Below are positions 2,612 through 30,315 of a stretch of DNA of 64,000 nucleotides, piece by piece. The notes beneath the pieces are model-generated. The model saw only the letters and a list, made by a program, of their open reading frames with translations, made no database searches and was not told the DNA's origin. Source of the DNA: Bryobacterales bacterium (GTDB lineage Bacteria > Acidobacteriota > Terriglobia > Bryobacterales > Bryobacteraceae); contig CAVXRP010000011.1 in the NCBI GenBank assembly GCA_963764105.1, positions 70,851 to 134,850 of the forward strand, given 5' to 3'. The position numbers were made by a program, and so were the translations under genes. Positions within the stretch are counted from its first letter, which is position 1; the number at the start of each line of letters is the position of its first letter.

Positions 2612-2631
2612 ATTTCATTTTCGCTCTTCCA

Positions 2632-3234: not shown

Positions 3235-3258
3235 CCTCTATTATAGAAGCCAAAGCTC

Positions 3259-4626: not shown

Positions 4627-4676
4627 CTGAAACCTGGTAGCCAGAGGAAGCGTCCTCTAAGGCACTCGTTTGCTAG

Positions 4677-5093: not shown

Positions 5094-5095
5094 CG

Positions 5096-12045: not shown

Positions 12046-14490
12046 TCAGCGACGAACTCGCCCGATAATCGGGCTCGAACTCGCCCCTAGCGCTCTCTTC
12101 AGCGCCTGCTGAGCTTCACTCAAATTTCGCATTGCAGACGCGTCAATCGGGTCCTTCTGTAAGGCGTTCCTCGACAGTTCAGTGACTTCGCGGCAGAGTT
12201 GCGCAGCCATCTCCTTGGCATGCATGGAGAGCTCCGCATCGATCGCCCAAATATCACACAGCGCCAATGCCGCGGCCGCTTCCGCATCCGACCTATCCTT
12301 TGAATAGAGATCCCGTAAGGTGGAAAGCCCAGCGCGTATTAGGCGCACTCCTTCTTGTGTTCGCCCGTCAAAAATCATAGATCTTCCCAGCGCCACTTGC
12401 GAAAATCCTTCTATGCTCTGCCAGCCTGGATCGCGAGTCCTTTGCGCGGCCAATTGTTTGCTTGCCAGTAACAAAGCTTGCTTTGCATGGGGCAGAGCCT
12501 CCTGGTACTCCTTGGTGTCCACCAGCAGCATGGAGAAATCGACTTCGGCCATCGCCAGATAGCCGGTGGCCAGTTCATTCGATTGCATTCCGTGTGGTCC
12601 ATGGAGGATAGTCAACGCTGCTTCAAAATGTTGCCTCGCCTCCCTATATCGCTGCATACGCCAGAGCGCGCCACCGGTCATTGCCTCCATGCTGGCAACG
12701 TAAGGAAATCCGATAGGATTCTCGATATTTGCATCGCGCCACCGCTTGAAGCGCGCTAAAGTCTCCAACTGCCCTTTGAGCCCTTCTTCACACTTTCCCG
12801 CATAAGGCGCTTGTTCGTTACCAACGTAGTCGGTCGCTAGATTCCAACAGGAATTAGCCGCGCGCAAGTAATTTAGACCCTGCGCGGGTCCGGCAAAGAT
12901 GGGCTGTGCCAGCGCGCACGCCTCTTGGTGGTAGGCAATGGCTTGGCGGAGTTCACCGGATTGAACCAGCAGACCGCCAAGCTGCGATAACAGGTAGGCT
13001 AGCTGTCCGCGATCCACAATGTCGCCAGTCTTGCCGAATACGTTTCTGCGCAATTGAACCGCTTTGATCATGTTTTTGCGAGCCTGTTCGCGATCAACGT
13101 CGGATTGCGCCATCATGCGTTGGGTGCGCGCGATCAGAAAATACGCCTGCGCCAGTTCGCGGGTCAGCGGCACATCGCCTTGCGCATCCGCCGACATACG
13201 GTCCAAATACTCAAGGTTTCGCTGGGCTATTAAATTTCGCGCGTCCGTTGTGCCCGGCAACGCTTCTAATTTACGATCGACTTCGCCCAGGTACGACTGC
13301 ACCAGCTTCCGTCCGTTTTGGTAGCGGCGTTCGGCGATCGCCGCCTGCGCCTGCGCCACCGCATACCCGTGCCATACCGCGAACGCGGCCAGAGTGATGG
13401 CTACAAACGAAACCGCCGCGATCCCTACGATTGCCCTTCGTCGTTTGACGAACTTGCCTATCCTGTAGAGCAGGGCATCAGGTCGTGCCCGAACCGGCAG
13501 CTGGAGCAAGTAGCGGTCCAGGTCGGCCGCAAACGCTTCAACCGTTCGGTAGCGCCGGCTGGGTTCGCGATGGAGCGCCTGCCGGAGGATGGTGTCCAAA
13601 TCACCCCGCAACGTGCGCTTTAGAGACTTGGCATTGGTTCGTCTTGCCTCCGCCGCCCCTGCTGCCACGGCCTCGCTGACCAGTCTTGGTTCTGTTTCGG
13701 TCAGCAGGCGAATCGCCTCGGGTGGCGGAAGGCCGGCCACCGGATGGGGAAGCGAGCCGCTCAACAGTTCGAATAGCAACGCGGCCAACGAGTATACGTC
13801 GCTTCCTGTGCCGATCGGTTCACGAGACACCTGTTCCGGACTGGCATAACTGGGGGTGAGTAGCTGGACCGTTAAAGCGCCGTCGTCTGGCGCGGTGTCC
13901 AGCCATTTCGCAATGCCGAAGTCGAGCAGCTTGGGATCGCCACTGGAAGTAACCAGAATGTTGTCTGGTTTCAAATCCCGATGGACGATCAGATTCTGGT
14001 GCGCACTCTGAACCGCTTCGCAAATCCGTATGAACAGCTGAATGCGCTCGCGCACACTCAACTTTCCCTCATCGCAGAATTCGTCGATCCGTCGCCCTTC
14101 CACATACTCCATGACAAGGTAAGGGCGGCCATCCTCTGTCACACCGCCATCCAGCAGGCGCGCGATTCCAGGATGATTCAAGCGCGCAAGCGTTTGGCGC
14201 TCGCGCACAAAACGCTTCAGCGCATCACCAGACCCGATGTGGCCCTGGACTACCTTGATGGCTACCTTCTGTGAATAAGCTGCATCGGCCCGTTCAGCGG
14301 AATAAACAGAACCCATGCCGCCATGGCCGATTAAATTGAGAATGCGATAGGAGCCCATCCGCCTGCCGGGCGGCAGCAAGTCGATAGCGTGTAAACTCCA
14401 TCCGATATTGGCGAACAACGCTTCCGATTGCGTCTCGAGCGTGAGCAACTCCTTAATCTCAGAGCGAAGCTGTGGTTCGTCGCCGCACAT
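12046..14490 (-). CDS. serine/threonine protein kinase with TM helix and C-terminal TPR-like sensor region
   Basis: Kinase motifs GHGGMGSVY, VAIKVV, HRDLKPDNIL, DFGIAK and SPEQ. TM segment IVGIAAVSFVAITLAAFAVW. A conserved-looking N-terminal segment continues in frame upstream to a CTG at 14580 (see findings). Confidence 0.9.
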   Translation of the reverse strand: MCGDEPQLRSEIKELLTLETQSEALFANIGWSLHAIDLLPPGRRMGSYRILNLIGHGGMGSVYSAERADAAYSQKVAIKVVQGHIGSGDALKRFVRERQTLARLNHPGIARLLDGGVTEDGRPYLVMEYVEGRRIDEFCDEGKLSVRERIQLFIRICEAVQSAHQNLIVHRDLKPDNILVTSSGDPKLLDFGIAKWLDTAPDDGALTVQLLTPSYASPEQVSREPIGTGSDVYSLAALLFELLSGSLPHPVAGLPPPEAIRLLTETEPRLVSEAVAAGAAEARRTNAKSLKRTLRGDLDTILRQALHREPSRRYRTVEAFAADLDRYLLQLPVRARPDALLYRIGKFVKRRRAIVGIAAVSFVAITLAAFAVWHGYAVAQAQAAIAERRYQNGRKLVQSYLGEVDRKLEALPGTTDARNLIAQRNLEYLDRMSADAQGDVPLTRELAQAYFLIARTQRMMAQSDVDREQARKNMIKAVQLRRNVFGKTGDIVDRGQLAYLLSQLGGLLVQSGELRQAIAYHQEACALAQPIFAGPAQGLNYLRAANSCWNLATDYVGNEQAPYAGKCEEGLKGQLETLARFKRWRDANIENPIGFPYVASMEAMTGGALWRMQRYREARQHFEAALTILHGPHGMQSNELATGYLAMAEVDFSMLLVDTKEYQEALPHAKQALLLASKQLAAQRTRDPGWQSIEGFSQVALGRSMIFDGRTQEGVRLIRAGLSTLRDLYSKDRSDAEAAAALALCDIWAIDAELSMHAKEMAAQLCREVTELSRNALQKDPIDASAMRNLSEAQQALKRALGASSSPIIGRVRR

Positions 14491-14576
14491 GGCTTCCAGA
14501 AAGCTCTGGCGGCGTTCTTCCGGCTGCTCTAGTGCCGCCTCCAGCAGCCCCCTGACTCGCGCCCAGTGCTCCGCCG

Positions 14577-15128
14577 TCAGGTCGTTGCTCCACGTCCGAG
14601 TTCCCGTGCCAACCAGAGTTTTGCTGAAGCCCAGTCTCGATCCGCCGTGGCTGGAGAGACGGCTAGGACTTCGGCCACCTGGGAGGAATTTAATCCGCCA
14701 AAAAGCCGCAGTTCGGCCACCCTTCCTTGGCGCGCATCCAGGCCGTGGAGTTCTTCCAATAAATGGTCGATGTGGAAAAAATCGGTAGCGGATTGATTCG
14801 CCAGAGATTCCACCAGGCTCAATGTTACTTGCTGAAGACCGCCGGCGCGTTTTTGAGCATTGCGCCGCTCGGCATGAGAGGCCAGGACGCGCCGCATCAA
14901 AGTTGCGGCCAGACCAAGTACCTGCGCCTCGTTCTGCCAGTCGACTTTGTGCTGCTGAAGAAGCCGCAAGTAAGCTTCGTGAACTAGCGCTGTCGGTTGC
15001 AAAGTATGGTTGCGCCGCTCATTTCGCAGGTAGCTCCGAGCCAAACGGCGCAGTTCGGAATAAAGCGCCGGAACCAATTCATCTAGCGATACTGGCGCGG
15101 GCCGCGCTGCCGGGTCTGTTTGTTCCAT
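14577..15128 (-). CDS. ECF-type RNA polymerase sigma factor (kinase-associated ECF family)
   Basis: 183 aa. Region 2-like ALVHEAYLRLL. Region 4 HTH ELRLFGGLNSSQVAEVLAVSPATADRDWASAKLWL. Immediately upstream of and overlapping the kinase gene. Confidence 0.88.
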   Translation of the reverse strand: MEQTDPAARPAPVSLDELVPALYSELRRLARSYLRNERRNHTLQPTALVHEAYLRLLQQHKVDWQNEAQVLGLAATLMRRVLASHAERRNAQKRAGGLQQVTLSLVESLANQSATDFFHIDHLLEELHGLDARQGRVAELRLFGGLNSSQVAEVLAVSPATADRDWASAKLWLARELGRGATT

Positions 15129-15263
15129 TGCGTTGGCCGCAGACCTTTGGTAGAAGTCGGCTTGCTACCAGTATATCGGCCGATTCGCCACTCGGCCATG
15201 GTCCAGGCGGCGCCGCAGTAGCGGTACCGCCTAGACCAGCGAACTATTGAGCCCCTATAAAAA

Positions 15264-15968
15264 TTACTGTTTGCGGAGCTTGCGAGTGGCAAGCCCAACG
15301 AGACTCAAACCCGCACCGAGCAACAAGTTGGTAGAGGGTTCCGGCGTGGCGGAAACCGGCGCGCCGCCCACTGCATCGATGTTTGTAAATGTTAGCGATC
15401 CTCCGGCAGCCGCATTTGAGAAATGAAGAATTCCCCCACTGATCGGTGCCGCATTGTTTGATGAAAAGCCGATGAAGTCGCTCGAATACTGGTTCAAGAA
15501 CGCCAGCAACGTGGCTTGGTCGCCAGCTCCCAGTGCGGTCACGATGGACGCTTCTGAAGTTCCGCCAAAAACTTGACTCCAGGTCTCGGTACCCAGGGCC
15601 GTGTTATAGACACCCTCATTCACCGCAACGCTGACGCCGGTGCTTGAATAGAGGCCCAACGCCGTGGCGACACCGCTCGATATGAATTCCGGAACGGTCT
15701 CGGTGATTGGGAAAGTACCGCCGGGAATGAAGTGCGTTTGGCCGGTAAATGGGTTGGTGATCCCCACCCCTTTGGTGCCCGTTAAGGTCCCGCCATTGGC
15801 GTCGTAAACGAAGTAATCGTCATATTGGTTACTGGTAAGTGAAATGCTTCCGGTAAAGGTAGTCTGTGGACTAACCGCTGAGGCAGACAATATCCCCGCG
15901 CTGGCAAAGCTCAGCGCGACTAGGACACGAAAAGATTTTGACAAAATGTTTCCTCCATGGAAAAGCAA
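15264..15968 (-). CDS. PEP-CTERM sorting domain protein
   Basis: Signal peptide plus C-terminal TPEPSTNLLLGAGLSLVGLATRKLRKQ (PEP motif, TM helix, basic tail). Confidence 0.8.
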   Translation of the reverse strand: MLFHGGNILSKSFRVLVALSFASAGILSASAVSPQTTFTGSISLTSNQYDDYFVYDANGGTLTGTKGVGITNPFTGQTHFIPGGTFPITETVPEFISSGVATALGLYSSTGVSVAVNEGVYNTALGTETWSQVFGGTSEASIVTALGAGDQATLLAFLNQYSSDFIGFSSNNAAPISGGILHFSNAAAGGSLTFTNIDAVGGAPVSATPEPSTNLLLGAGLSLVGLATRKLRKQ

Positions 15969-16590
15969 TTAAACGTTAGGAGACTGGCTCCATACGATAA
16001 CGTCGAAATCGCATCCATGAATCCTCACAGCGAAGTACTAGCCGAGCGCCTCCGAGTACTGGGGTACTTTTGCTTCCGGCGCCTGCTGGCAAACCCTCAT
16101 CCCCCCTGTGAATCCGAGGAATCGTGGCTGCTCTTGCCTGCGCTGCGCCACCACCGCCGAACGCGCCTTCCAACGCGAACTCCGTCTCCTTCAACAGTTC
16201 TGTAAAGCCCACCCCTCGGTTGAAAGCCGCCCCGCTGCCCCCGCTTCGAACCCGCAGAACCCCATCCCAAACCTCGGGCTCGCCTCACCGTCGTGGGCGA
16301 AGATCCAACTAGCTAGCCCCACAGGCCTTACCCTGCTTCTCGAGAACATTGGCGGCATCAAAAATAGGGTCCCACGGCCGTATTGCCCTCCAGCCAAATC
16401 GCTGCCCGGCCGACCGCCGCCGCATGGTGAGCATTCTTGTCGGCAGGCAGCGTTCGGGTGGCCCGGGGCTTGTAATCCTGTGCTCATCCGTTCGGCGCCG
16501 AGAAAAATGAGTGACATTGTGTTAGCCTGTAAGTCGTTCCTAAGAACACGCTAAGTCCGCTTAGTTTCGCGGACCGGTAAGACCCAAGTC

Positions 16591-18069
16591 ATGTCGCTGC
16601 AAGTTTTTTTGCAAGCTCAAATCTCCGGCACTGAACGCTTCCTGACCGCTCCCTCCGCTGAGCAGCAGGATTCCATGGCGGATTTAAGTGGGCGTTGCGC
16701 CTGGCTGACGCTCGCCTGCGAAGTTCTACCGCGCGCGCTCCTTGCTGAACTGAAACTTTCGCCGATGCTGCTGGGTTCGAGCAGCGCCGAGCAGTTTCTG
16801 CTGGTGCTGGCGGAAGAAGACGTCGCGCGCGCCAACGATTTCCTGACGCGCGCGGCTGAAGAAATGGCCAAGCTGTCCGGCAGCACGCTGCGGCTGGTTT
16901 GGGCGAGCACCGAAAATCTGGGCGCTTGGCCCATTGCGCGTAAGCGGCTGGATGACGAGTTGCTCGCGAAGACGGTCGCGCCTCTGGCGGCAAGCGCCAA
17001 CGACTGGACGCAAGCCTTCGCGCCTTTCCTGCCGGCCGATACGGAAAAGGGCGACGCATATTTTGAAAAGTTCGGACTGGGCTTGGCCACTGCGCGCCAA
17101 GTGGGCTGGTCTGCTGATCAGCCGGCGCATCTTGTGTGGGACGGCGGACAATATAGCTGGACGCTCAAAGAACAATCGGGCGGTGAGGACGATGGCATTC
17201 TGTTCCCGCGCCGCTTTGCCATGGATGAGAACGGCAGCCATCCCAGTACGTTGCCTGAGCTGGCCGAGCGCCCTAGCGGCGCGCACAAGTGGGGTATTTT
17301 GCGCGGCGATGTGGATCATTTCGATCTGCAATTGCGGCGTGTCGCGTCGATTGAAGAACATATTCACCTTTCGGTATTGTTCAAAGAATTTTTCGCAGGC
17401 GAACTGGCGGTGCTGTGTACGCTGCCGGAGTTCTGGCGCAAAGTGACGATTCTCTATCGCGGTGGGGAAGATTTCGCGGTGGTCGGCACCTGGGATGCAC
17501 TGGTGCCGTTAGCACGCGAAATACAGCGACTGTTTGAAAAGTTCGTGGAACAAAATACCGCCATGTTTCCGAGTCTGGAAGCGCGCAGTATCAGCATGGC
17601 TATGGCGATTGCGCCCGATGCGGCCAGTCCGGCCGGCGCGATTTTTCAGGAGGCAGGCGTGCAGTTGCAAGCCGCCAAAGCGAGTGAGGTCGGCGGCTTC
17701 CGGCTTTTCGACCGCACGCTCGAGTGGAAGCGTTTAGGCGATGCCGAAGAGTTGAAGAGCAGCTTGATGCGTTTGGTGCGGGATTTTCGTTTTTCGCCCG
17801 ACTATGTGCATGATCTAGCTTCGGTGTATCGTGAATCGTTTTCGGCGCGCGCCCTGCGCCGCGGCAAAGGGATGAAAATCGATAAGCCGTGGCGCACGTT
17901 TATGCGCCTGTCAACGGTGATTCCGCAAGGGCGCGGCAAGGAATTGAATAACGTCCGGAACGCCGTGATCACGAATTTGGTGGGCAAGAAAACGGCTGGG
18001 TTGAAATTGCGACCTTCGGGCCGGGTGGGATTGGAGTGGGCGCGGCTGGCAGCCGGCGCCGATGAATAA
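16591..18069 (+). CDS. cas10: miniaturised Cas10/Csm1-like large subunit (Palm1 + Palm2, no HD domain, no Zn finger)
   Basis: Palm1-like LQAQISGTERFL, LSGRCAWLTL and GSSSAEQFLLVL. Palm2 WGILRGDVDHFD and ILYRGGEDFAVVGTWD (GGDD-equivalent), then SISMAMAIA. First gene of a csm-type operon. Only 492 aa, with an in-frame TAA 13 codons upstream of the ATG. Confidence 0.75.
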   Translation: MSLQVFLQAQISGTERFLTAPSAEQQDSMADLSGRCAWLTLACEVLPRALLAELKLSPMLLGSSSAEQFLLVLAEEDVARANDFLTRAAEEMAKLSGSTLRLVWASTENLGAWPIARKRLDDELLAKTVAPLAASANDWTQAFAPFLPADTEKGDAYFEKFGLGLATARQVGWSADQPAHLVWDGGQYSWTLKEQSGGEDDGILFPRRFAMDENGSHPSTLPELAERPSGAHKWGILRGDVDHFDLQLRRVASIEEHIHLSVLFKEFFAGELAVLCTLPEFWRKVTILYRGGEDFAVVGTWDALVPLAREIQRLFEKFVEQNTAMFPSLEARSISMAMAIAPDAASPAGAIFQEAGVQLQAAKASEVGGFRLFDRTLEWKRLGDAEELKSSLMRLVRDFRFSPDYVHDLASVYRESFSARALRRGKGMKIDKPWRTFMRLSTVIPQGRGKELNNVRNAVITNLVGKKTAGLKLRPSGRVGLEWARLAAGADE

Positions 18070-18103
18070 TCCGCGTGAAGCGTTAAGAAAAAAGGATTGA
18101 GCA

Positions 18104-18661
18104 ATGCCTGAAACAGAAGAAAAGAAACCCGAGGAGCGTAAAGGCGGCGACCGGCCAGCGCGCGAAGGGCGACCCAGTGGTCCGGGCGGCAGTGGCCCGC
18201 GTGGCGAGAATCGCGGCCCTGGCGGCGGCGATCGGGGCCGAGGCCCGGGAGGCGACCGGGGCGGTCCCGGTGGCGATCGCGGGCGCGGCGGACCGGCTGG
18301 CGACCGGCGCGGCGAAGGTCCGCCCGACATGGATATCGAGAAGTTGATTGCCGATCCGTTATATCTCGACAATCAGGCGCACGTGGTGGTCAGCCGCATG
18401 CGCGACATGGATTCCGGCACGAAGAGCCAGTTGCGCCGGCTCTATAACGCGGTGCGCCGTGCCACGCGAGCGCCCGAGAGCGAGCGCCAGCATGAATTTG
18501 TCATGGTGCGGGCGCGTTTGGCGTACACCATCGCGCGCCATTCCTTGCGCAGTCTAGACGCTCTGGAGCGTCTGCTGCTGCAAGTCACGCGCAAAAACGA
18601 TACGCGGGGCTACGAACGCTTCCGCGATCTGTTTGAAGCCATCATTGCTTATAACGAATAG
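18104..18661 (+). CDS. csm2: Cas11/Csm2-like small subunit with N-terminal Gly/Arg/Pro-rich extension
   Basis: The C-terminal ~105 aa are helical with Csm2-like landmarks (TKSQLRRLYNAV, RARLAYTIARH, FRDLFEAIIAYNE). The N-terminal ~75 aa are GGDRGRGPGGDRGGPGGDRGRGGPAGDRRG-type low complexity. AAGGA lies 9 nt before the ATG. Confidence 0.7.
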   Translation: MPETEEKKPEERKGGDRPAREGRPSGPGGSGPRGENRGPGGGDRGRGPGGDRGGPGGDRGRGGPAGDRRGEGPPDMDIEKLIADPLYLDNQAHVVVSRMRDMDSGTKSQLRRLYNAVRRATRAPESERQHEFVMVRARLAYTIARHSLRSLDALERLLLQVTRKNDTRGYERFRDLFEAIIAYNE

Positions 18662-18676
18662 GGTTGGGTTTTATTC

Positions 18677-19510
18677 ATGAGTTCTCACACGGCGGACACC
18701 GCACTTACATTTTTAGGAAAGCTGATTTTAGAAGGCGAGATTCATTGCCAGACCGGCCTGCATATTGGCGCCGGTAAAGGATCGCTGGAGATCGGCGGCG
18801 CCGATAATCCGGTGGTCAAGGACGCCTTCGGCATTCCGTACATTCCGGGCAGTTCCCTGCGCGGCCGCTTGCGCGCTCTGCTCGAACAAACCATGGGCCT
18901 GGCGGTGCCCGGCGAATTGGTTTATTTGTCTAAGCGCAAAGGGCAGGAAGTGCGCATCCATCAAAGCGATCGGGCCGATGACGAAATCTGCGTTTTGTTC
19001 GGCCGCAATCCCGGACGGGTGGATAGAGTAACCGGCGACCCTTTGGAAGGCGCCACGGCTACGCCGGCGCGTCTCACGGTTTTCGACGCGCCGCTGGTGG
19101 TGGATAGCATCACACCGCAGATGCGCGAAAACCTGGACGACGAATTGACCGAAGTGAAAAGCGAAAACGCGGTGGACCGCATCACCTCGCAGGCCAACCC
19201 GCGCACGCTCGAACGCGTGCCCGCCGGTGCGCGCTTCAAGTTCCGCATGGTGCTCGATATCCTCTGCGAAGAAGACAAGCCGCTAGTGGCGCGCGTGGCG
19301 GAAGGTTTGCGCCTGCTTGAAGACGATGCGTTGGGCGGCGGCGGCAGCCGTGGCAACGGCCGTGTCGCGTTTGCGGGTTTGAGCCTGTTGTGGCGCGGCA
19401 AAGATTATTACGCCAAGGGCGCGGCCGAAGAGAGCCTGCTCGCCGCTGCCGATCTGGCGGCGTTCCAGCAATTGGCCAGCGCCGGCGACTTCAGCGCGAA
19501 GCTAGCCTAA
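18677..19510 (+). CDS. csm3: Csm3 (Cas7 RAMP backbone subunit)
   Basis: Aligns by eye along its length with staphylococcal Csm3: TGLHIGAGKGSLEIGGADNPVVKD, IPGSSLRGRLRALLE, TEVKSENAVDRITSQANPRTLERVPAGARF, LEDDALGGGGSRGNGRV. The Asp of GGADNPVV corresponds to the RNA-cleaving Asp. Confidence 0.9.
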   Translation: MSSHTADTALTFLGKLILEGEIHCQTGLHIGAGKGSLEIGGADNPVVKDAFGIPYIPGSSLRGRLRALLEQTMGLAVPGELVYLSKRKGQEVRIHQSDRADDEICVLFGRNPGRVDRVTGDPLEGATATPARLTVFDAPLVVDSITPQMRENLDDELTEVKSENAVDRITSQANPRTLERVPAGARFKFRMVLDILCEEDKPLVARVAEGLRLLEDDALGGGGSRGNGRVAFAGLSLLWRGKDYYAKGAAEESLLAAADLAAFQQLASAGDFSAKLA

Positions 19511-19511
19511 A

Positions 19512-20897
19512 ATGCAGCCGGCAGTTTTGATACGGCTCCGTCCGCTCGGCGCTTGGCGCTTTGGACCGGCGGACGGCGGCCACGACCAGGTAGACACGCT
19601 CTATCGCAGCGACCGCTTGTATTCCGCGGTGACGCTCGCCATGCAGCGCTTGGGCCTGCTGGACGAGTGGCTGGACGCTACCGCGCGCGCCGCCAAACCG
19701 GCGCTGGTTTTCAGCTCGCTGTTTCCATTTCAAGGCGACACGCTCTATGCCATTCCGCCTGCCACTTTGTGGCCGCCGCCACTGGCGCTGCTCACTACGC
19801 CCAGTCCAGTTTTCTTGACCAAGATCCGCTGGAAGACCGCGCATTTCGTGCCGCTGAGTGTGATCGATTCTTTAATCACCGGCCAGCCGATTCTGGCCGA
19901 TCAATGGCTGCCCGACCCCGAAAGCGCCTGCCTGCTGCGGCGCGACCGGCCCAGTTCAAGTCCGTTTCGCGTCGTCATGCGCAGCACTGCGGCGGTCGAC
20001 CGCCTCACGCATTCGAGCGATGAAATCAAGCCTGTCGCTTGCGTCGAGTTCGAGCAAAATGCCGGCTTGTGGACTGTGGCGCGCTTTGCCGGTGCAGAGG
20101 AAGAGCAGGTGTGGAGCAGCCGATTGCAAGCGGCCCTGCGGCTGTTAAGCGATTCCGGTTTTGGCGGCGGACGCAGCCGAGGTTGGGGCCAGACGCAAGA
20201 GGCCGATTTCCAGAGCGGTTCTTGGCCTGCGATTCTGTTGCCGAAGTTAGGCCGCCTCTTGCGCAACGCCCCGCCAGCCGAGCTTGAACATGGTGCTGGG
20301 GCGCTCTATTGGCTGCTCTCGCTTTATTCGCCCGCGGCCGTCGATAAAGTTGATTGGACCGGCGGAAACTATTCTCTGACCTTACGGGGCGGCCGCGTGG
20401 ACAGCAATTCGGGTCAAGGCGCTACCAAGAAGAACGTACGCATGGTAAGCGAAGGCTGCGTGTTGGCCGCGGGCGATGAACCGGTGGGTGTCGCGGTCGA
20501 TGTAGCTCCCGACGGCTTCGCGCATCCCGTTTACCGCTCGGGTTTGGCCTTGGCTTTGCGGTTGCCAGTGGTTGAAGTACAACAGAAACCGATAGAGGAG
20601 CCCTCTACCGAGGAAGCCGTGATCGAACAGTTCGTTGAACCGACGGTGCATGAACCTGAAACGCCGATGGAACCGCCGGCAGCTGTCGAAGAGCCCGCTC
20701 CCCCATCCCCGCCAGAACAGGAGCCGCCGACAATCGAACAGGCAGCTGAGCCCGCAGTGCCCGGTCCCGAGATCCGTGAGCCCGAAGCGCCAGTGGAACC
20801 ACCGCCAGCTATAGAAGAGCCAACTCCGCCATCGCCGCCGGAACAGGAGCCGCCGCTTGAGTCTCCACCTCTGGAGGAGCTGCCGCATGAAGTATAA
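19512..20897 (+). CDS. csm4: Csm4 (Cas5 RAMP) with ~115-aa Pro/Glu-rich C-terminal extension
   Basis: LRPLGAWRFG, YRSDRLYSAVTLA, FSSLFPF, SDSGFGGGRSRGWGQ and HPVYRSGLALALRLPV (canonical Csm4 C-terminus), followed by the extra PE-rich tail. Starts 1 nt after the csm3 stop. Confidence 0.85.
   Translation: MQPAVLIRLRPLGAWRFGPADGGHDQVDTLYRSDRLYSAVTLAMQRLGLLDEWLDATARAAKPALVFSSLFPFQGDTLYAIPPATLWPPPLALLTTPSPVFLTKIRWKTAHFVPLSVIDSLITGQPILADQWLPDPESACLLRRDRPSSSPFRVVMRSTAAVDRLTHSSDEIKPVACVEFEQNAGLWTVARFAGAEEEQVWSSRLQAALRLLSDSGFGGGRSRGWGQTQEADFQSGSWPAILLPKLGRLLRNAPPAELEHGAGALYWLLSLYSPAAVDKVDWTGGNYSLTLRGGRVDSNSGQGATKKNVRMVSEGCVLAAGDEPVGVAVDVAPDGFAHPVYRSGLALALRLPVVEVQQKPIEEPSTEEAVIEQFVEPTVHEPETPMEPPAAVEEPAPPSPPEQEPPTIEQAAEPAVPGPEIREPEAPVEPPPAIEEPTPPSPPEQEPPLESPPLEELPHEV
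20652..20855 (+). repeat. imperfect tandem duplication (126-bp period) inside the csm4 3-prime end
   Basis: The 78-bp cores 20652-20729 and 20778-20855 encode EPETPMEPPAAVEEPAPPSPPEQEPP and EPEAPVEPPPAIEEPTPPSPPEQEPP. Confidence 0.8.
20873..20879 (+). promoter_or_regulatory. Shine-Dalgarno GGAGGAG for csm5
   Basis: GGAGGAG lies 7 nt upstream of the ATG at 20887, inside the csm4 3-prime end. Confidence 0.5.
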
Positions 20898-22029
20898 AGT
20901 GACTGCGCTCACGCCGCTCCTGGTCGGCGACGGCCGCGAACTCTCGCCCATCGACTACATGGTCTGGAAAGACCAGGTCAACGTACTCGATCAGACGCGC
21001 ATTTTCAAGCTGCTTTCGCGCGGCCCTCGCCTGGATGGTTATCTGGCCCAGCTGCGCAAGGCAAGCAAACTCGATTTCGCATCCTGGGGCGGCTTCGCGC
21101 AAAACTTCTCGCAGCGCCGCATTCCCTTTGAAACGCCCGATGCCACCGCAATTTGGAATAACGCGCCGCCGGAAGCACTCTTCATCCCCACCTTCGCCGC
21201 CAATTATCGCGGCCCTTATCTGCCCGCTTCGGCGCTCAAGGGCGCGTTGCGCAGCGGCCTGGTCTTTTCGCGCTGGTCTTTGAGCACCATGGAGCGAGCC
21301 GCCGCGGCGATGGAAGGCGACCGCTTGCCGCGCCGCGTGAGCGACAGTGCCGAAGGGAGCGCGCAAGCATCGCAAATGCGCGTCTTGGCTGTGGCCGATA
21401 GCGAACCCATTTCCACCAGCGCCTTCAAAGTGTATGTATCGCGGACGGCATCGCTCGATTTTCGGCAAGCGGGCGATCCGCAGCTAGTTTGGAAAGTGGC
21501 CGGCCGCGGAAGTGTCGCTGCGCAACGCGTGAACGAAGCTACGCCGGTATTTGCCGAAATGGCGATACCCGGAACCGAATTCGCCGGCCGATGCGATGAG
21601 CGCACATTTTTGGAGCAGCCCGATATGGCGCGTAGCCTGGGCTGGCGTAGCCCGCCCAACATTGACGCGATTGTCACAGCTGCCAATCAGTTTGCCGCCT
21701 CGCAATTGGAAATGCAAGCGCGTTATGCGCAAGCTACCGGCCTGCCGCAAGTGCAGGAGACGGTCGCGCATTTGCAATCCGAGTTGCAAGCCGCGCAAAC
21801 CAACCCGCTCTCCTGTCTCTTATGTTTGGGTTGGGGTGGCGGCTTTCTGAGTAAAGCCTGTTTTCACGATACAGATTCGGAAGCCTACCGCAAAATATTG
21901 CGCTCTGTGCCCTCCATTAGCAGGGCGATTCGCGACAAGGTGCCCTTTCCAAAGACTCGCCGGTTGATATTTGCAGGGGGTAAGCCGGCCAGCGTTCCCG
22001 GGTGGGTCCGCTTGCATGTGGAAGCATAG
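20887..22029 (+). CDS. csm5: Csm5 (Cas7-like RAMP)
   Basis: MKYKVTALTPLLVGDGRELSPIDYMV, PYLPASALKGALRSGL and C-terminal LGWGGGFLSK (G-rich loop). ATG at 20887 is preferred over the upstream start at 20857. Overlaps csm4 by 11 nt. Confidence 0.85.
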   Translation: MKYKVTALTPLLVGDGRELSPIDYMVWKDQVNVLDQTRIFKLLSRGPRLDGYLAQLRKASKLDFASWGGFAQNFSQRRIPFETPDATAIWNNAPPEALFIPTFAANYRGPYLPASALKGALRSGLVFSRWSLSTMERAAAAMEGDRLPRRVSDSAEGSAQASQMRVLAVADSEPISTSAFKVYVSRTASLDFRQAGDPQLVWKVAGRGSVAAQRVNEATPVFAEMAIPGTEFAGRCDERTFLEQPDMARSLGWRSPPNIDAIVTAANQFAASQLEMQARYAQATGLPQVQETVAHLQSELQAAQTNPLSCLLCLGWGGGFLSKACFHDTDSEAYRKILRSVPSISRAIRDKVPFPKTRRLIFAGGKPASVPGWVRLHVEA

Positions 22030-22191
22030 TATTCCAATATTAATCTGGGTTTTACGGGTCTTTAATTAGGACTTTGCGAGTGTCGCTTGGTTGTCCAACT
22101 CGGGTATGATAGGTTGTGGGAGTTCCCCACTAAACCAATCATCGGCGGCTTGGCCGCCTGACTTGTACCGAGGTCCCGTAGAGGGTCAACC

Positions 22192-23100
22192 ATGCAAAGC
22201 GCTATTTACAACCCATATTTCGGGTTTAGTGAGAACCCATTTAACATCAGTCCGGATCCGGAGTTCTTGTATCGCAGCCCGCAGCACGAAGAGGCGTTGG
22301 CGAACTTGATCTATGGCGTCCGGAGCCGCAAAGGTTTTATTGTTTTAACGGGTGAAGTCGGTACCGGCAAGACAACCATGCTCGAGTGTTTGCGCGATTA
22401 CCTGGACACCATGCGCACCGAGTTTGCGTTTATTTTTAATTCTCGCTTAACGCCGGACCAGTTCTTTGAAATGATGGCGTTCGATTTCGATTTGGAGTGC
22501 GACCGCAAATCGAAAACGGATGTGCTGTTTGCTTTGAACACGTTGCTGATCAAGCAGGCCGAAAAAGGCCGCACTTGCGTGCTGTTGGTGGATGAAGCTC
22601 ACAACTTGGAGTGGGACGTTTTGGAGGAAATTCGTTTGCTGGGCAATCTGGAAAATCGCGGTGGTAAGCTGCTGCAGATTATCCTGGCGGGGCAACCGGA
22701 ATTGGACCGCAAGCTGGACGCACCGAATCTGCGGCAACTGAAACAGCGCATTGTTTTGCGTTGCAACTTGAATCCGCTTGAGCCGGACGAAGCAGTGGCG
22801 TACATTGAGACGCGCATGGCGCGTGCGGGCATGCCGGAGCAAACGGTCTTTTCGCCCGAACTGCTGGAAGAGATTTACCGGCGCGCGCGGGGTATCCCGC
22901 GCGTGATTAACCTGATCTGCGATAACCTGTTGGTGACCGCTTTCGCCATGGAGCGCAAAACTGCAACTGTAGAAATGCTGGATGAGGTTTGCCAAGATCT
23001 GCGTCTGGAGTGGCCGGGTTCTGGCCGGCGCGGGCGTTCGCGCTTCAACGTCGACGAAGAACACCAGTTTCCCGACGCCATTACCGCGCGTGGCGATTAG
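22192..23100 (+). CDS. ExeA/GspA-like AAA ATPase (PEP-CTERM-locus type secretion ATPase family)
   Basis: N-terminal YNPYFGFSENPFNISPDPEFLYRSPQHEEAL, Walker A GEVGTGKTT, Walker B VLLVDEAHNL, and QIILAGQPEL. Confidence 0.85.
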   Translation: MQSAIYNPYFGFSENPFNISPDPEFLYRSPQHEEALANLIYGVRSRKGFIVLTGEVGTGKTTMLECLRDYLDTMRTEFAFIFNSRLTPDQFFEMMAFDFDLECDRKSKTDVLFALNTLLIKQAEKGRTCVLLVDEAHNLEWDVLEEIRLLGNLENRGGKLLQIILAGQPELDRKLDAPNLRQLKQRIVLRCNLNPLEPDEAVAYIETRMARAGMPEQTVFSPELLEEIYRRARGIPRVINLICDNLLVTAFAMERKTATVEMLDEVCQDLRLEWPGSGRRGRSRFNVDEEHQFPDAITARGD

Positions 23101-23487
23101 ACGCTCGGCGATATGTTTCTGCGCCTGTGCCACTGCCTGCTGAGCCGACCGCCCAGATCTGAACCCGTAGCTGCTTTCAGAAAACGTCCGGTCCCACCGC
23201 CTCTGGAGAACCCGCATCACCGACGGTGCTGAATCAATCGATCCAGCACCGTCGGAATGCCCGCGCCACCCTTATTGGCCTTTAACCCGCTGCCCTGCTT
23301 TTTTCAGGTTTTCTCGCTCCCTACTTCCTCCATCCATCGATTCGTGGCTGGCTGGGCTTTCGGGGTTATTCACCGTCGAGAGCGATTCGATCTCCTCGCT
23401 CCCCGCTTCGCGGGCTTCACCCGCTGGCGTGGAAGGGAATTCCAGTTCGACCTGAATACTCTGCTTCATTTCGCTCCTGAGATGCAT
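23101..23487 (-). pseudogene. group II intron reverse transcriptase remnant (5-prime part only, frameshifted, internally deleted)
   Basis: Minus-strand pieces in three frames: RENLKKAGQRVK, ANKGGAGIPTVLDRLIQ, and VLQRRWDRTFSESSYGFRSGRSAQQAVAQAQKHIAE (RT0-RT2 motifs). Homology stops abruptly at 23100, where the ATPase gene ends. Confidence 0.65.
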
Positions 23488-23860
23488 GCCCTACTTGCCG
23501 CTCCTCTCGTTCGGGCTTTCCAACCGTCTCCTGTGCACAGACAGTCCCAGGGGCTAAACTCTGCTTTGCGAGGGCTTTGGGGAGAGCGAAACCACTGTCC
23601 CGAGGCCGTTTTCACGTCCACCAGGATCGCCGCCGCCCGCCGTTCACCCCCATAAAGATCTTGTCGTGCGCCAAGCCGAAGAACCATGACCGCATTTTGC
23701 CTACTGACGATATTGGGTCGAAACTTCGAACAGGAAAAACCGTCCTGCGGCCGGGAAGAAAAGTCTTAGGGGCTGATGTAGGGATATATAGCCCAGCTCA
23801 GGTCTTTTCGGCCACCTCGGCGTTAAGAAATTCCAAGAGCTCACGAACGAACAACTCGAA

Positions 23861-25168
23861 GTGAAAATCGCGAAAGCGGCGAGTTGTTACGAAACATGGA
23901 AGAAGAAGTCTTATGCGGAGCGAGCGCTGATCGTCGCGAAGGCGGCGGAACTCATGCATGCCGAGGTGGATAAGTTTGCTAAACACGCCACGGTGGAGAT
24001 GGGGAAGCTGATCAATGAAGCGCGCGGCGAGGTTGACTTCAGCGCAAACATTCTGGCCTCTTACGCCAAAAACGGCGAGCGTTTTCTGGCGCCGGTGAAG
24101 CTGAATCCGACGCATGGAGAAGCGCATATGGAAAGCAGCCTGATTGGCGTGATTTTCGGCGTAGAACCGTGGAACTTCCCTTACTATCAGCTGGCGCGGG
24201 TAGCCGGTCCTCATCTCATGGCGGGTAACACGCTTCTGGTGAAGCACGGCGGCCGCGTTCCACAATGCGCCATCGAGTTTGAAAAGCTTTGGATGGACGC
24301 CGGCGCACCGGAAGGCCTCTATACGAATCTTCTAATCTCGCACGAACAATCGGACAAGGTCATCGACGATCCGCGCATCAAGGGCGTCGCGCTCACCGGC
24401 AGCGTGGCGGCCGGCAGAAGCATCTCGGCTAGAGCGGGAACCAATCTCAAAGTCTCTTCCATGGAACTGGGCGGCAGCGATGCGTTCATAGGGCTGGAGG
24501 ATGCGGATCTCGAGAAGACCATTCCCTGGGCTGTCTGGGGAAGAATGTACAACGCGGGGCAGACCTGCTGCGCGTCGAAGCGCTTCATTGTTGTAGAAGA
24601 GATCGCCGATCAATTTCTGGCGAAATTCAAGGTCGCCCTGGAAGCACTGAAACCCGGGGATCCCATGGACGAGAAGACCACGCACGGCCCGCTCTCCACT
24701 GAGTCGGCGCTGGTCGATTTGCTCAAACAGGTGGATAACGCGGTGGCGAAGGGTGCGAAGGTGGCGTTAGGCGGCAAACGGATCGACCGAGCCGGCTCGT
24801 TCATGCAAGCCACCATCCTGACCGATGTGAAACCCGATAATCCTGCCTTTCGCGATGAGTTCTTTGGACCGGTGGCCATGTTCTTCCGGGTGAAGGATGA
24901 GGCTGCGGCCATTGCACTGGCCAACGATTCCGACTTTGGCTTGGGCGGCTCGGTCTTTACCAAAGATATCGCGCGCGGCAAGCGTGTCGCTTCGCAGGTT
25001 GAGACGGGGATGATGTTCATCAACAACATCGATTGGTCGGACGCGGAGCTTCCTTTTGGAGGCATCAAAGATTCCGGGTACGGGCGCGAATTGGGCAATA
25101 TGGGAATCGAGGAGTTTGTGAACAAGAAGCTGGTTCGTATACACGACATGGCTGCCCCCTTGGTATAG
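23861..25168 (+). CDS. NAD(P)-dependent aldehyde dehydrogenase (succinate-semialdehyde dehydrogenase-like), apparently 5-prime truncated
   Basis: ELGGSDA, catalytic GQTCCASKR, and EEFVNKK. GTG start. Family-like sequence (KKFQELTNEQLE) continues in frame upstream of the GTG, without any start codon, back to a TAG at 23789. Confidence 0.85.
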   Translation: MKIAKAASCYETWKKKSYAERALIVAKAAELMHAEVDKFAKHATVEMGKLINEARGEVDFSANILASYAKNGERFLAPVKLNPTHGEAHMESSLIGVIFGVEPWNFPYYQLARVAGPHLMAGNTLLVKHGGRVPQCAIEFEKLWMDAGAPEGLYTNLLISHEQSDKVIDDPRIKGVALTGSVAAGRSISARAGTNLKVSSMELGGSDAFIGLEDADLEKTIPWAVWGRMYNAGQTCCASKRFIVVEEIADQFLAKFKVALEALKPGDPMDEKTTHGPLSTESALVDLLKQVDNAVAKGAKVALGGKRIDRAGSFMQATILTDVKPDNPAFRDEFFGPVAMFFRVKDEAAAIALANDSDFGLGGSVFTKDIARGKRVASQVETGMMFINNIDWSDAELPFGGIKDSGYGRELGNMGIEEFVNKKLVRIHDMAAPLV

Positions 25169-25281
25169 GCGGATGGGGAAGGCTTCAGCCTGCCGCTGGA
25201 GATTGTCAATCGGTGCCTGGTTTTTTGCATAGGGCCTCACCTTCACAGATTTGGTAGAGGCCCCAAAGGGAAAGTCAAAAA

Positions 25282-26283
25282 ATGTACGTCAATGTTGCGG
25301 TTTTACGTGAAACGCTCGCGCATGAACGTCGTGTGGCTCTGATGCCATCCGTTACCGCCGGGCTGGTGAAGGTAGGCGCGAAACTACACATGCAGTGCGG
25401 CGCGGGTGAGGCGAGCAGTTTCCCCGATGAGTCCTATAAGGACGTGGTCTTCATGAAAGACCGGGCGCAAATGGTGGCGGACGCAGACATCGTGCTGGCG
25501 GTTCAGCCGCCCGCGCTCGAAGTGGTTGATGCCATGAAGGAGGGGTCGGTTTTGATCTGCTTCGTCTATGCCGAGCATCAGAAACCGCTGCTGAAACGGC
25601 TCGTAGAAAAGAAAATCACCTGCTTCGCCATGGAGCGTGTACCGCGCATTACCCGCGCGCAGTCGATGGACGCCCTGTCAAGTCAATCCGCGTTGGGCGG
25701 CTATTATGCGGTGGAACTGGGAGCAACGAATTTGACGCGGGTTCTGCCCAAGATCACATCTGCGGCGGGGGCCATCGGGCCAGCGCATGTCTTAGTCATG
25801 GGACTCGGAGTGGCCGGGCTTGAAGCGGTGGCTACCGCTCACCGTTTGGGCGCCGTGGTGGAAGGATATGACATTCGTCCCGATACGGAAGAACAGGTTC
25901 TATCGCTGGGCGCGACCTTCGTCCAGACCGGTGTGGACGCGCACGGCAAGGGCGGCTATGCGCGCGAACTCACGCCTGAGGAAAAGACCAAGGTGGCAAG
26001 TGTTCTGACGAAACACATTCAACAAGCGGACCTTATCATTACCACCGCGGCCATTCCCGGCAAACCATCACCCAAACTGATCAGCAGCGAGCAAGTAAAG
26101 GGTATGAAGCCGGGCGCGGTGATTGTCGATTTGTCCGCGGAGGGTGGCGGCAACTGTCAAGATACCCAGCCGGGAAAGACCGCGCGCATTGGTCCGGTGA
26201 CGATTGTTGCGCCGCTCAATGTGCCGTCACTGCTGGCCCAGGATGCAAGCGACCTTTACTCCAGAACCAGTACAACCTGTTAA
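25282..26283 (+). CDS. pntA: NAD(P) transhydrogenase subunit alpha part 1 (PntAA), 3-prime end frameshifted
   Basis: AlaDH/PNT fold with Rossmann VMGLGVAGLEAV. After ..DLYSR the family-typical C-terminus (NQYNLLKLILKDNIITIDWGDEVL..) continues in the +1 frame to about 26430. The lesion looks like AAA to AA at about 26264. Confidence 0.85.
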   Translation: MYVNVAVLRETLAHERRVALMPSVTAGLVKVGAKLHMQCGAGEASSFPDESYKDVVFMKDRAQMVADADIVLAVQPPALEVVDAMKEGSVLICFVYAEHQKPLLKRLVEKKITCFAMERVPRITRAQSMDALSSQSALGGYYAVELGATNLTRVLPKITSAAGAIGPAHVLVMGLGVAGLEAVATAHRLGAVVEGYDIRPDTEEQVLSLGATFVQTGVDAHGKGGYARELTPEEKTKVASVLTKHIQQADLIITTAAIPGKPSPKLISSEQVKGMKPGAVIVDLSAEGGGNCQDTQPGKTARIGPVTIVAPLNVPSLLAQDASDLYSRTSTTC

Positions 26284-26457
26284 AGCTGATCCTTAAAGAC
26301 AACATCATCACGATTGACTGGGGCGATGAGGTGCTTGCCAAGACCGCGCTGACGCATGCTGGCAAGTTGCAAAGCTCGGGCGAAAAAGCTGAACCGGAAA
26401 AAACCGCAGCATCCCCGGGGAAAGCCGCTTAAGTCAACCTCAAAAAGAGAACATTTT

Positions 26458-26820: not shown

Positions 26821-26829
26821 GGATTCCAC

Positions 26830-28280: not shown

Positions 28281-28308
28281 AGTTTACAACCATAAAGAGG
28301 AGCTATCA

Positions 28309-30248: not shown

Positions 30249-30315
30249 CGCAGCCTGAGAGGCGCCATGTCCGCTCTAGGTTGACAGTCAATCTACATGG
30301 TGTCTCATGGTAGCA

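Follow-up and report, generated by a model that had tools for sequence, protein, structure and literature searches.

Positions 16591-23100 of the 64-kb stretch of Bryobacterales DNA analysed here (the window) hold what is, judged from the sequence, an intact type III-A CRISPR effector operon, predicted to encode five Csm subunits and adjoined by the gene of an AAA+ ATPase. The reading favoured here, to which we assign a probability of roughly 45%, is that of a complete and functional III-A-derived operon with its ATPase, giving rise to an array-independent Csm ribonucleoprotein that would cleave RNA, would probably signal by means of a nucleotide and would lack a DNase output. The initial annotation of this DNA had concentrated on the missing DNase domain and effectors. 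The anomalies that it overlooked are the stronger ones, namely that array, cas6 and adaptation genes are absent, that the cassette is a constrained fixture throughout its lineage, and that the cyclase site is degenerate in some branches.

Layout of the operon and identity of the Csm subunits

The open reading frames recomputed here agree with the coordinates given earlier for this region. The first gene, cas10/csm1 (16591..18069, + strand), encodes an HD-less protein of 492 aa with a degenerate Palm1, a short linker, Palm2 and a helical D4 domain. It is followed on the same strand by csm2, encoding the Cas11 small subunit (18104..18661, +; PF03750 and TIGR01870 match residues 88-184), csm3, encoding the Cas7 backbone RNase (18677..19510, +; TIGR02582, 1.9e-60), csm4, encoding Cas5 (19512..20897, +; TIGR01903, 3.7e-37 over residues 7-350) and csm5 (20887..22029, +; TIGR01899, 6e-15; Csm5 in PADLOC). 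The reading frame of csm5 is open from a TTG at 20857, although translation probably begins with the ATG at 20887; the csm5 genes as called in relatives encode 380 aa. The matches to TIGR01870, TIGR02582, TIGR01903 and TIGR01899, all encoded in one operon, exceed their cutoffs, and PADLOC agrees on Csm2-Csm5.

Two subunits carry unusual ends. Csm2 starts with a low-complexity, RG/RGG-rich extension of ~75 aa, and tandem repeats lie inside the gene at 18223-18315; its C-terminal core is 91-98% identical to relatives. Csm4 ends in an acidic, Pro/Glu-rich tail of ~110 aa, and csm4 contains a pair of 79-nt direct repeats (20651-20729 and 20777-20855).

The catalytic aspartate of Csm3

Column by column, LEIGGADNPVV of Csm3 lines up with LKIGGTDNPVI (PDB 4qts) and SEIGGIDNPVI (6muu/6iqw), and D43 (codon 18803-18805) is identified by these PDB alignments as the catalytic Asp. 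The motif IGGADNPV[VI] is found in 63/63 related loci that cover this stretch. The claim that the Asp for target-RNA cleavage is retained was thus borne out, and proper alignment, which had been named as the step in which the residue might be lost, left it in place. As read from these residues, Csm3 of this operon keeps a predicted RNA-cleaving active site.

Cas10, the missing HD domain and the cyclase site

In Pfam, the second palm domain alone was detected in Cas10 (PF22335, 1.7e-15), and the scan gave no match to an HD domain. Against TIGR02578 (Csm1), the protein scored 115.6, under the cutoff of 170, because the C-terminal third of the model alone is matched (positions 490-703 of 753). 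PADLOC labels the large subunit Cas10/Cas10a, and the best Foldseek matches of its AF2 model are Csm1 chains (E 3e-11, TM 0.62-0.65). In the family profile, residues 7-80 correspond to residues 255-327 of the S. epidermidis Cas10, the start of Palm1, and residues 209-324 correspond to residues 502-618 (Palm2). As the Palm1 alignment begins near residue ~250 of the S. epidermidis protein, the ~250 N-terminal residues of the latter (HD and linker) are without a counterpart here. The closest canonical Cas10 relatives are 780-800 aa long and carry PF01966, while nearly all of the 120 best homologues measure 486-527 aa and 119/120 begin with MSLQVFLQ. A conserved promoter-like and 5'UTR region lies immediately upstream of cas10, and the short N-terminus is therefore not a start mis-call. 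Family-profile alignment, homologue lengths and upstream conservation together confirm a Cas10 without HD domain, as first proposed.

The metal-binding motif of Palm2, GDVD (residues 239-242; 17305..17316, +), aligns with GDVD/LDVD of solved Csm1 structures; across 120 homologues, G239 and D240 never change, and V241 and D242 are retained in 118/120 and 119/120, respectively. At the canonical GGDD position, this Cas10 has GGED (residues 291-294; 17461..17472, +), which aligns with GGDD of 6iqw, 4uw2 and 6kc0. The 120 best homologues carry GGDD (87/120) or GGED (32/120), so that GG[D/E]D is present in 119/120, and the related loci carry GGDD (~50), GGED (17) or GGDG/AGDG/EGDG (9). Degenerate motifs (GGDG, AGDG, EGDG, GVAG, SNDG, GASD, GIEG) affect ~10% of the close members as well as several deep branches, and signalling is thus not universally required. 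By analogy with the GGEEF/GGDEF diguanylate cyclases, Glu may be tolerated in GGED; we know of no test of such a motif in Cas10.

These patterns bear on an RNA-only output, in which the Palm would be vestigial or structural and the complex would serve solely as a guide-directed RNase or as a regulator that binds RNA, whether or not the ATPase takes part. Such an output would agree with an invariant Csm3 Asp beside a less conserved GGDD, whose second Asp is lost in ~10% of close members, with the several deep branches in which the cyclase motif is destroyed and the operon kept, and with the lack of a receptor gene in cis. However, GDVD varies hardly or not at all, and ~90% of members have preserved GG[D/E]D under strong selection, which a purely structural loop hardly explains, and an RNA-only output appears rather unlikely to us.

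Array, adaptation genes and effectors in the neighbourhood

No CRISPR array was found across the 64-kb window, a point not raised in the initial annotation, nor in the 104 related loci (1.05 Mb in total, read within +/-10 kb of each). Pfam and NCBIfam searches of the ~40 larger open reading frames of the window gave no CARF, SAVED, CHAT, Lon, Cas6 or Cas1/2 domain, PADLOC gave no CARF/SAVED effector match in the window, and no CARF, SAVED, Cas6 or Cas1/2 was found in the Pfam-annotated flanks of six related loci. That no CARF/SAVED effector is encoded nearby, as stated earlier, holds for the 64-kb window and the six annotated related loci, and an adjacent csm6, csx1 or can gene, which had been named as possible counter-evidence, was found in no related locus.

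An operon of this kind might take part in ordinary trans-acting type III defence, with remote arrays and Cas6, with cOA acting on remote CARF/SAVED effectors and with the ATPase as a mere syntenic neighbour. That type III systems can share arrays and Cas6 in trans is established and speaks for this explanation, as do the mostly intact cyclase and Csm3 motifs and the ATPase gene, which has a promoter-like element of its own and is missing from some loci. It is further in line with the work of Hoikkala et al. 2024 (PMC11229360), who described 133 type III loci that are HD-less and cyclase-positive and have no known effector; such loci are over-represented in genomes where several type III loci coexist. 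Given these 133 loci, a type III locus of this make-up is not rare, and the initial framing of its outputs as unusual for a III-A-like operon needs correction in this respect. On the other hand, 1.05 Mb of flanks are without an array, and so, as reported, is the complete genome of one member of the order Bryobacterales, Ca. Solibacter usitatus Ellin6076, in which Cas genes (Acid_0892/0893/0895) and no CRISPRs were described (PMC3174227); these genes are possibly, not necessarily, the present cassette.

Distribution, selection and inheritance

The five csm genes recur in the 104 related loci, all of which are assigned to Bryobacterales/Acidobacteriota. The Cas10 family comprises >1,400 clusters, of which the 120 best are ~490 aa long, and the named clusters are all Bryobacteraceae, Bryobacterales, Acidobacteriaceae or Acidobacteriota. 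One deep-branch locus with PSCyt/DUF1501 neighbours (L094) was considered as a member of another phylum. This was rejected, as its relatives are named Bryobacteraceae/Bryobacterales, and no cross-phylum claim is made.

Purifying selection acts strongly on each of the six genes, with dN/dS of 0.015-0.13 at dS up to ~2 (cas10 0.05-0.07, csm3 0.02-0.05, ATPase 0.015-0.04). The missing array, adaptation genes and HD domain could also be taken as marks of a decaying remnant of a lost CRISPR-Cas locus, and left-over Cas genes were proposed in 2011 for Ellin6076 (PMC3174227). A remnant is difficult to reconcile with six open reading frames that are intact in dozens of genomes, with such low dN/dS at such high dS and with conserved catalytic motifs and promoter/5'UTR; the selection analysis effectively refutes it, and we consider it highly improbable.

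Thiolase/FadB synteny was found downstream of the cassette in 12 loci. Thiolase identities of 96, 93, 86, 83, 76 and 74% were accompanied by Cas10 identities of 95, 89, 86, 86, 69 and 66%. The six genes thus diverge in step with their thiolase/FadB neighbours, which indicates that the csm-ATPase cassette is vertically inherited in Bryobacterales in a housekeeping context. No relatives of the cassette were found in viral contigs. The window also encodes, further upstream, a PEP-CTERM protein, the synteny of which does not extend to relatives. Vertical co-divergence, very low dN/dS and the lack of a viral or mobile context are atypical of defence islands and argue against trans-acting defence, as do an ATPase linkage that spans the deepest split of the family and the survival of the cassette in branches without the cyclase motif. 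Trans-acting defence is possible in our estimate, though doubtful.

The adjoining AAA+ ATPase

The gene after csm5 (22192..23100, +) encodes a putatively soluble ExeA/GspA-like AAA+ ATPase of 302 aa (AAA_22; PF13401, 1.3e-26) with invariant Walker motifs (Walker A GEVGTGKTT, 22351-22377, +; Walker B DEAH, 22591-22602, +). Against TIGR03015, it scored 294.8 bits, under the cutoff of 324.5, with positions 1-268 of 269 matched. Source annotations call it 'general secretion pathway protein A', and its N-terminus, read by eye, is taken by us to be an ExeA-type motif. It resembles the XrtA/PEP-CTERM ATPase (TIGR03015) and GspA/ExeA/MshM in the full-length TIGR03015 match and the AAA_22 domain, whereas its score is below the cutoff and the gene conserved beside it is csm5, in place of exosortase/EPS or secretion genes. 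GspA/ExeA consists of an AAA+ domain, a transmembrane segment and a periplasmic peptidoglycan-binding domain; here, the AAA_22/AAA_16 domain alone was detected, and Pfam gave no peptidoglycan-binding match. A PDB sequence search gave no match, and PADLOC gave P-loop-level matches and nothing more specific. Foldseek returned Cdc6/ORC, TnsC and RuvB (TM 0.25-0.38), that is, generic initiator-clade AAA+ proteins, and these matches are weak because the model is poor (pLDDT 58).

Adjacency of the ATPase to the csm operon, as noted initially, was confirmed. The gene lies directly after csm5 in 30/35 informative loci, and csm5 is without a neighbouring ATPase in 5/35 and also in the locus L102. In the deep-branch locus L094 (identities: Cas10 34%, Csm4/5 37%, Csm3 67%, ATPase 70%), the ATPase still follows csm5 and all other neighbours differ. 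Both look-ups anchored on the ATPase (L103 and L104, 2/2) fall downstream of a csm cassette. The earlier suggestion that the ATPase might be an unconventional partner of the complex gains support from this synteny, part of which could be inherited, as for FadB. A tie between loss of GGDD and absence of the ATPase was considered and rejected, as 4/4 readable ATPase-less acidobacterial loci have GGDD; L102 is the sole locus without both the ATPase and an intact cyclase motif.

Proposed mechanism

In the favoured reading, the five Csm proteins would form a complex around a guide RNA that comes from another part of the genome; a guide locus is absent in cis, and the existence of the guide is what we infer. 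The complex would pair with complementary transcripts, and these would be cut by Asp43 of Csm3, as suggested by the invariant active-site motif; a DNase output would not be expected, the HD domain being absent. In most members, and probably here too (GDVD and GGED), target binding might activate Palm2 to produce a nucleotide signal, the receptor of which would presumably not be encoded beside the operon. The AAA+ ATPase, observed in synteny, may be a dedicated partner, most plausibly an oligomeric switch or remodeller that would either load or reset the complex or operate downstream of it. The guide repertoire would be fixed and host-encoded, for innate surveillance or RNA regulation instead of adaptive immunity. 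Such a fixed-guide, non-adaptive reading is favoured because the cassette is array-less, strongly constrained and co-diverging with housekeeping neighbours.

Core-gene-like inheritance, the lack of an array and the ATPase neighbour suggest a CRISPR machine outside classical adaptive immunity. It is conceivable, and for now tentative, that Csm has been domesticated as a core machine that would use host non-CRISPR guides and the ExeA-like ATPase, with a Palm that signals to a new kind of receptor, possibly the ATPase. The role of such a machine, equally speculative as part of the same domestication reading, might be endogenous RNA regulation or innate transcript surveillance.

Comparison with known systems

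The cassette shares with the type III-A Csm systems of S. epidermidis, S. thermophilus, T. onnurineus and M. tuberculosis the five subunits and their gene order, the catalytic Asp of Csm3, the Palm1/Palm2/D4 architecture of Cas10 and the GDVD and GGDD-type motifs, and by sequence and structure it is Csm1 and Csm3 chains that it matches best. It differs in that HD, array, cas6, cas1/2 and csm6 are absent (in the window), Palm1 has degenerated, low-complexity tails are present on Csm2 and Csm4, and the genes are vertically inherited in a housekeeping context with a linked AAA+ ATPase.

The 133 effector-less loci are similar in their nuclease-deficient Cas10, their cyclase motif and the lack of a CARF/SAVED partner in cis (PMC11229360). 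They were regarded as defence systems whose signals presumably act on other loci, and as a rule they have arrays, whereas the present cassette has no array, is conserved lineage-wide and has a specific, recurring ATPase neighbour. Another HD-less example is the Vibrio metoecus Cmr system with NucC (PMC8682760). Subtypes III-G/III-H, in which the cyclase is inactivated, HD is active and Cas7 is without the catalytic Asp (2025, PMC12669027), have likewise evolved by reduction, have lost ancillary signalling genes and are without adaptation modules, and III-G loci also have no array; the pattern is reversed here, as HD is gone, the Cas7 Asp never varies and most members retain the cyclase motif. 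CRISPR-associated transposons (TnsC; I-F3, I-B, V-K) also couple a guide-RNA effector without DNA nuclease to an AAA+ ATPase. This is an analogy only, since transposase, TniQ and transposon ends are absent here and the effector is an RNA-targeting type III complex. A description of this Csm variant was not found in the 2025 classification or in the 2023 terascale, 2018 accessory-gene and 2024 type III surveys.

Significance

The exaptations of CRISPR effectors known so far concern types I, IV and V, taken up by transposons or plasmids. Type III would join this list with a complete complex that is fixed, array-less, across a bacterial order; if the domestication is true, this would be the first case in which such a complex was exapted for a non-adaptive role and passed on vertically. 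Bryobacterales are abundant in soil, and the system is therefore environmentally widespread (>1,400 sequence clusters); it escapes discovery pipelines anchored on CRISPR arrays. Questions arise as to which RNA guides the complex, what an HD-less Cas10 signals to when no CARF/SAVED gene is at hand, and what job a GspA-like ATPase does for a ribonucleoprotein. Should a fixed host RNA serve as the guide, the complex would amount to a naturally occurring, programmable tool for targeting RNA, free of collateral DNase.

Upstream and intergenic elements

About 80 aligned upstream regions define the box TTGTGTTAGCCTG (16517..16529, +) with an extended -10-like element (TG-n-TAGCCT, 16520-16528), which is inferred to be a putative promoter element of the csm operon; deep-branch loci have just a TGnTAnnnT-like box at the equivalent place. 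A hairpin in the 5'UTR (GTCCGC-loop-GCGGAC; 16555..16574, +) was obtained with RNAalifold from 82 sequences, with six pairs and compensatory double changes in 6/6 of them, such as C-G to U-A in 18 sequences. The leader upstream of cas10 (the hairpin, then ..CGCUACGAC) was considered as a solo-repeat or crRNA-like guide and rejected: deep-branch loci are without the hairpin and keep the TGnTAnnnT box alone, and the leader is therefore read as promoter and 5'UTR. Between csm5 and the ATPase gene, a conserved motif derived from 30 aligned intergenic regions (..TGCCGAT..N..gTATGATgG) contains the -10-like hexamer TATGAT (22105..22110, +), a putative own promoter of the ATPase gene. A simple sigma-70 scan called neither of the two proposed promoters.

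Rfam gave nothing at the gathering threshold over 64 kb, and CcsR1, the sole match at E<10 near the operon, was dismissed as chance-level. A repeat in one related locus (L008) was rejected as a CRISPR array, as it is a (CCCGTGAAT)n microsatellite. A guide RNA embedded within the genes was likewise rejected after a synonymous-site entropy scan of the six genes, in which constraint was confined to codons 1-12 of cas10 (0.45, compared with a mean of 0.81), most simply a translation-start effect.

Operon organisation and gene identities

We class the cassette as a novel form of type III-A that works like a Csm complex; set against the features that define type III-A membership, it is without an HD domain, an adjacent array or Cas6, and a CARF effector. 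At a probability of roughly 45%, we propose an array-independent Csm ribonucleoprotein that would cleave RNA, would likely make a nucleotide signal, would have no DNase output, would work with the AAA+ ATPase as a partner and would serve a fixed-guide function.

Six genes lie in the same orientation on the forward strand (window 16591–23100), namely cas10 (16591–18069, 492 amino acids), csm2 (18104–18661), csm3 (18677–19510), csm4 (19512–20897), csm5 (open from 20857, with a probable ATG start at 20887, and ending at 22029) and, after a gap of 160 nt, a gene for an AAA_22 ATPase (22192–23100). Csm2, Csm3, Csm4 and Csm5 were identified above threshold by Pfam, NCBIfam and PADLOC, and Cas10 was recognised by the same resources via its second palm domain only. 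Together with the open reading frames, these searches bear out the coordinates and gene identities of the initial annotation. Csm2 carries an RG/RGG-rich low-complexity extension of about 75 amino acids at its N-terminus (18104–18330), and the last 110 or so amino acids of Csm4 form an acidic, Pro/Glu-rich tail composed of two 79-nt direct repeats (20560–20897). Both tails differ in length and sequence between relatives (Csm4 has 332–509 amino acids), and a basic and an acidic tail together on one complex are unusual for Csm proteins.

Catalytic sites of Csm3 and Cas10

The observation that the cassette keeps the RNA-cleaving Asp of Csm3, has lost the HD domain of Cas10 and has no CARF/SAVED effector nearby was confirmed. 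In an alignment, LEIGGADNPVV of Csm3 matched the GGxDNPV active-site loop of the solved Csm3 structures 4qts, 6muu and 6iqw residue for residue, and the RNA-cleaving Asp is therefore D43. The motif was invariant in 63 of 63 loci.

Cas10 lacks an HD domain. When a profile of its family was aligned to Staphylococcus epidermidis Cas10, residues 7–80 matched residues 255–327, where Palm1 opens with its first strand and hairpin (QAQLLGAEEFL...GSSSAEQFLLVL against MDMSGIQDFI...YTGGGHAYLLV in S. epidermidis), and residues 209–324 align with Palm2. An AF2 model of Cas10 (pLDDT 70, pTM 0.74) matched Csm1 chains over nearly the whole length with TM scores of 0.62–0.65. The nearest canonical Cas10 relatives have 780–800 amino acids and an HD domain, whereas the window Cas10 has 492 and none.

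In Palm2 of the window Cas10, GDVD is kept and GGED replaces the canonical GGDD. Among the best 120 of more than 1,400 homologous clusters, G239 and D240 of GDVD were invariant and D242 was found in 119, and the second motif read GGDD in 87 and GGED in 32. About 10% of the locus set have GGDG, AGDG or EGDG at this position, and several deep Cas10 clusters have GVAG, SNDG, GASD, GLGE or GIEG, with GDVD degraded too. Across the locus set, loss of the GGDD motif did not track with loss of the ATPase. Given the invariant Csm3 motif and the variable GGDD site, RNA cleavage looks like the chemistry retained throughout the family. Judged from these motifs, nucleotide synthesis would be retained in most lineages, probably including that of the window, and appears dispensable. 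In the deep-branch locus L102, both palm motifs of Cas10 are gone from the cassette (1576–6962 of that locus; LAEVD, GVAG), and csm5 is followed by a PfkB kinase gene rather than the ATPase; this cassette could represent a naturally "signalling-dead" version.

Arrays, effectors and neighbouring genes

Neither a CRISPR array nor a match to an Rfam family was found in the 64-kb window, and the comparative set of 104 related loci (1.05 Mb in total) was likewise devoid of arrays. The main rival reading, that the cassette is an ordinary defence module acting in trans, is regarded as less likely than the preferred array-independent ribonucleoprotein. The only candidate array, a repeat in the related locus L008, proved to be a 9-nt microsatellite: a dense (CCCGTGAAT)n tract with longer 70-nt repeats, at 4760–5110 of that locus and some 5 kb upstream of its cassette.

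Pfam and NCBIfam scans of about 40 larger open reading frames across the window revealed no CARF, SAVED, CHAT, Lon, Cas6, Cas1 or Cas2, in line with the earlier claim that no CARF/SAVED effector is nearby. The scanned frames were housekeeping or unannotated, including an M16 peptidase, an esterase, a Ser/Thr kinase, an ECF sigma factor, a PEP-CTERM protein, aldehyde dehydrogenase, transhydrogenase PntAB, Zn-dependent alcohol dehydrogenases, thiolase and a FadB-like protein; neighbours in six loci with Pfam-annotated flanks were housekeeping only. Just upstream of the operon, the reverse strand (12046–15968) encodes the Ser/Thr kinase with TPR repeats, the ECF sigma factor (TIGR02999) and the PEP-CTERM-sorted protein. 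These genes are not syntenic in relatives and so probably have no connection with the cassette, even though its ATPase resembles a PEP-CTERM-system ATPase model. A gene for an IS4-family DDE transposase (PF01609, PF13006) lies at 54750–56213.

From the literature, the complete 9.9 Mb genome of Ca. Solibacter usitatus Ellin6076, which belongs to Bryobacterales, was reported to contain the Cas genes Acid_0892/0893/0895 but no CRISPRs, and the genes were read as leftovers (Challacombe et al. 2011, PMC3174227). Going by locus numbers, these would fit csm2, csm3 and csm5 of the cassette. A later survey counted 133 type III loci that have no known effector and whose Cas10 is HD-less and cyclase-positive, and proposed inter-locus signalling for them (Hoikkala et al. 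2024, PMC11229360). The output problem by itself thus belongs to a category already described. A lineage-wide, array-less, ATPase-linked variant was not found described in the 2025 classification or the other surveys searched.

Family, selection and inheritance

Homologues of the short Cas10 form more than 1,400 clusters, of which the best 120 are almost all 486–527 amino acids long and, in 119 cases, start with MSLQVFLQ. Every named source was Bryobacteraceae, Bryobacterales, Acidobacteriaceae or Acidobacteriota. A search of 1.84 billion 50%-identity representatives yielded about two dozen full-length family clusters with identities down to 36%, and ordinary Csm1 proteins appeared only from E ~1e-19. 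The order cas10-csm2-csm3-csm4-csm5 was seen in all loci reaching far enough, and no relative of the cassette was present in the viral contig collection.

Compared with four relatives (dS 0.3 to about 2), dN/dS was 0.015–0.04 for the ATPase, 0.02–0.05 for csm3 and csm2, 0.05–0.07 for cas10 and csm5, and 0.10–0.13 for csm4; values of 0.015–0.13 across six genes rule out a decaying remnant of a CRISPR locus. A thiolase/FadB pair downstream of the cassette is syntenic in 12 loci, with thiolase identities to the window copy of 96, 93, 86, 83, 76 and 74% against 95, 89, 86, 86, 69 and 66% for Cas10. Such a fall in step is expected if the cassette has long been inherited vertically in the chromosome.

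Linkage of the ATPase to csm5

In 30 loci csm5 is followed by the ATPase; five others have room for it but lack it. In the deep-branch locus L094 it is retained at 70% identity, next to a Cas10 at 34% and Csm4/Csm5 at 37%, with no other neighbour in common. Two look-ups begun from ATPase homologues rather than from Cas10 both led to just downstream of a csm cassette. Counter-evidence comes from the PfkB gene in the ATPase position of L102 and from a TTGCCGAT..TATGAT motif conserved in the csm5–ATPase spacer, which suggests transcription of the ATPase from its own promoter. We conclude that the ATPase and the csm operon share a genuine, long-standing linkage, and infer a functional role of the ATPase with it. 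Of the three outputs proposed initially (RNA only, a remote effector or the ATPase as partner), the last gains support from this linkage, so that the interpretation stands in part.

The ATPase is probably soluble, has invariant Walker A and B motifs and matches the XrtA/PEP-CTERM-associated ATPase model over its full length, although below the cutoff (294.8 against 324.5 bits). It has no sequence relative in the PDB. Foldseek matches to Cdc6/ORC, ShCAST TnsC, RuvB and DnaA/Hda indicate an AAA+ core only, as the AF2 model was poor.

A block of about 7.5 kb (23100–30650) separates the ATPase from a Zn-dependent alcohol dehydrogenase gene (30656–31759) and contains aldehyde dehydrogenase (23861–25168), PntAA/PntAB/PntB (25282–28280) and another Zn-dependent alcohol dehydrogenase (28309–29679). 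In L008, L009, L011, L082 and L093, related loci with Cas10 84–95% identical, no more than about 300 nt separate the first-named gene from the ATPase, and the block is therefore read, from synteny, as a lineage-specific insertion between the ATPase and its ancestral neighbour. At its left edge, a frameshifted putative group II intron-type reverse transcriptase fragment (23100–23260, reverse strand) abuts the ATPase stop codon; it was identified by motif recognition only (GIPTVLDRLIQ and FSESSYGFRSGRSAQQAVAQAQKHI in two frames).

Leader region and guide RNA

Conserved non-coding DNA in cis is limited to some 75 nt upstream of cas10, with an extended -10-like box (TG-n-TAGCCT, 16520–16528) and a 5'UTR hairpin (16555–16574) with compensatory base changes over about 80 relatives. 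The leader was rejected as a guide RNA: deep-branch loci keep only the box, so it is read as a promoter and leader. The guide, if any, is encoded elsewhere than in the cassette. The hairpin may act as an attenuator or bind a regulator, and a second, more variable one (AGCGTTC...GAACACGCT) may precede it.

In a scan of synonymous-site entropy, constraint was confined to the first dozen codons of cas10. Relative synonymous entropy was 0.45 over codons 2–12 (16594–16626), the mean for the gene being 0.81. Codon 8, for example, was CAA in 86 of 86 sequences and codon 7 TTG in 75 of 86; the GC content of the genome is about 58%. This early constraint probably reflects translation initiation or pairing with the leader.
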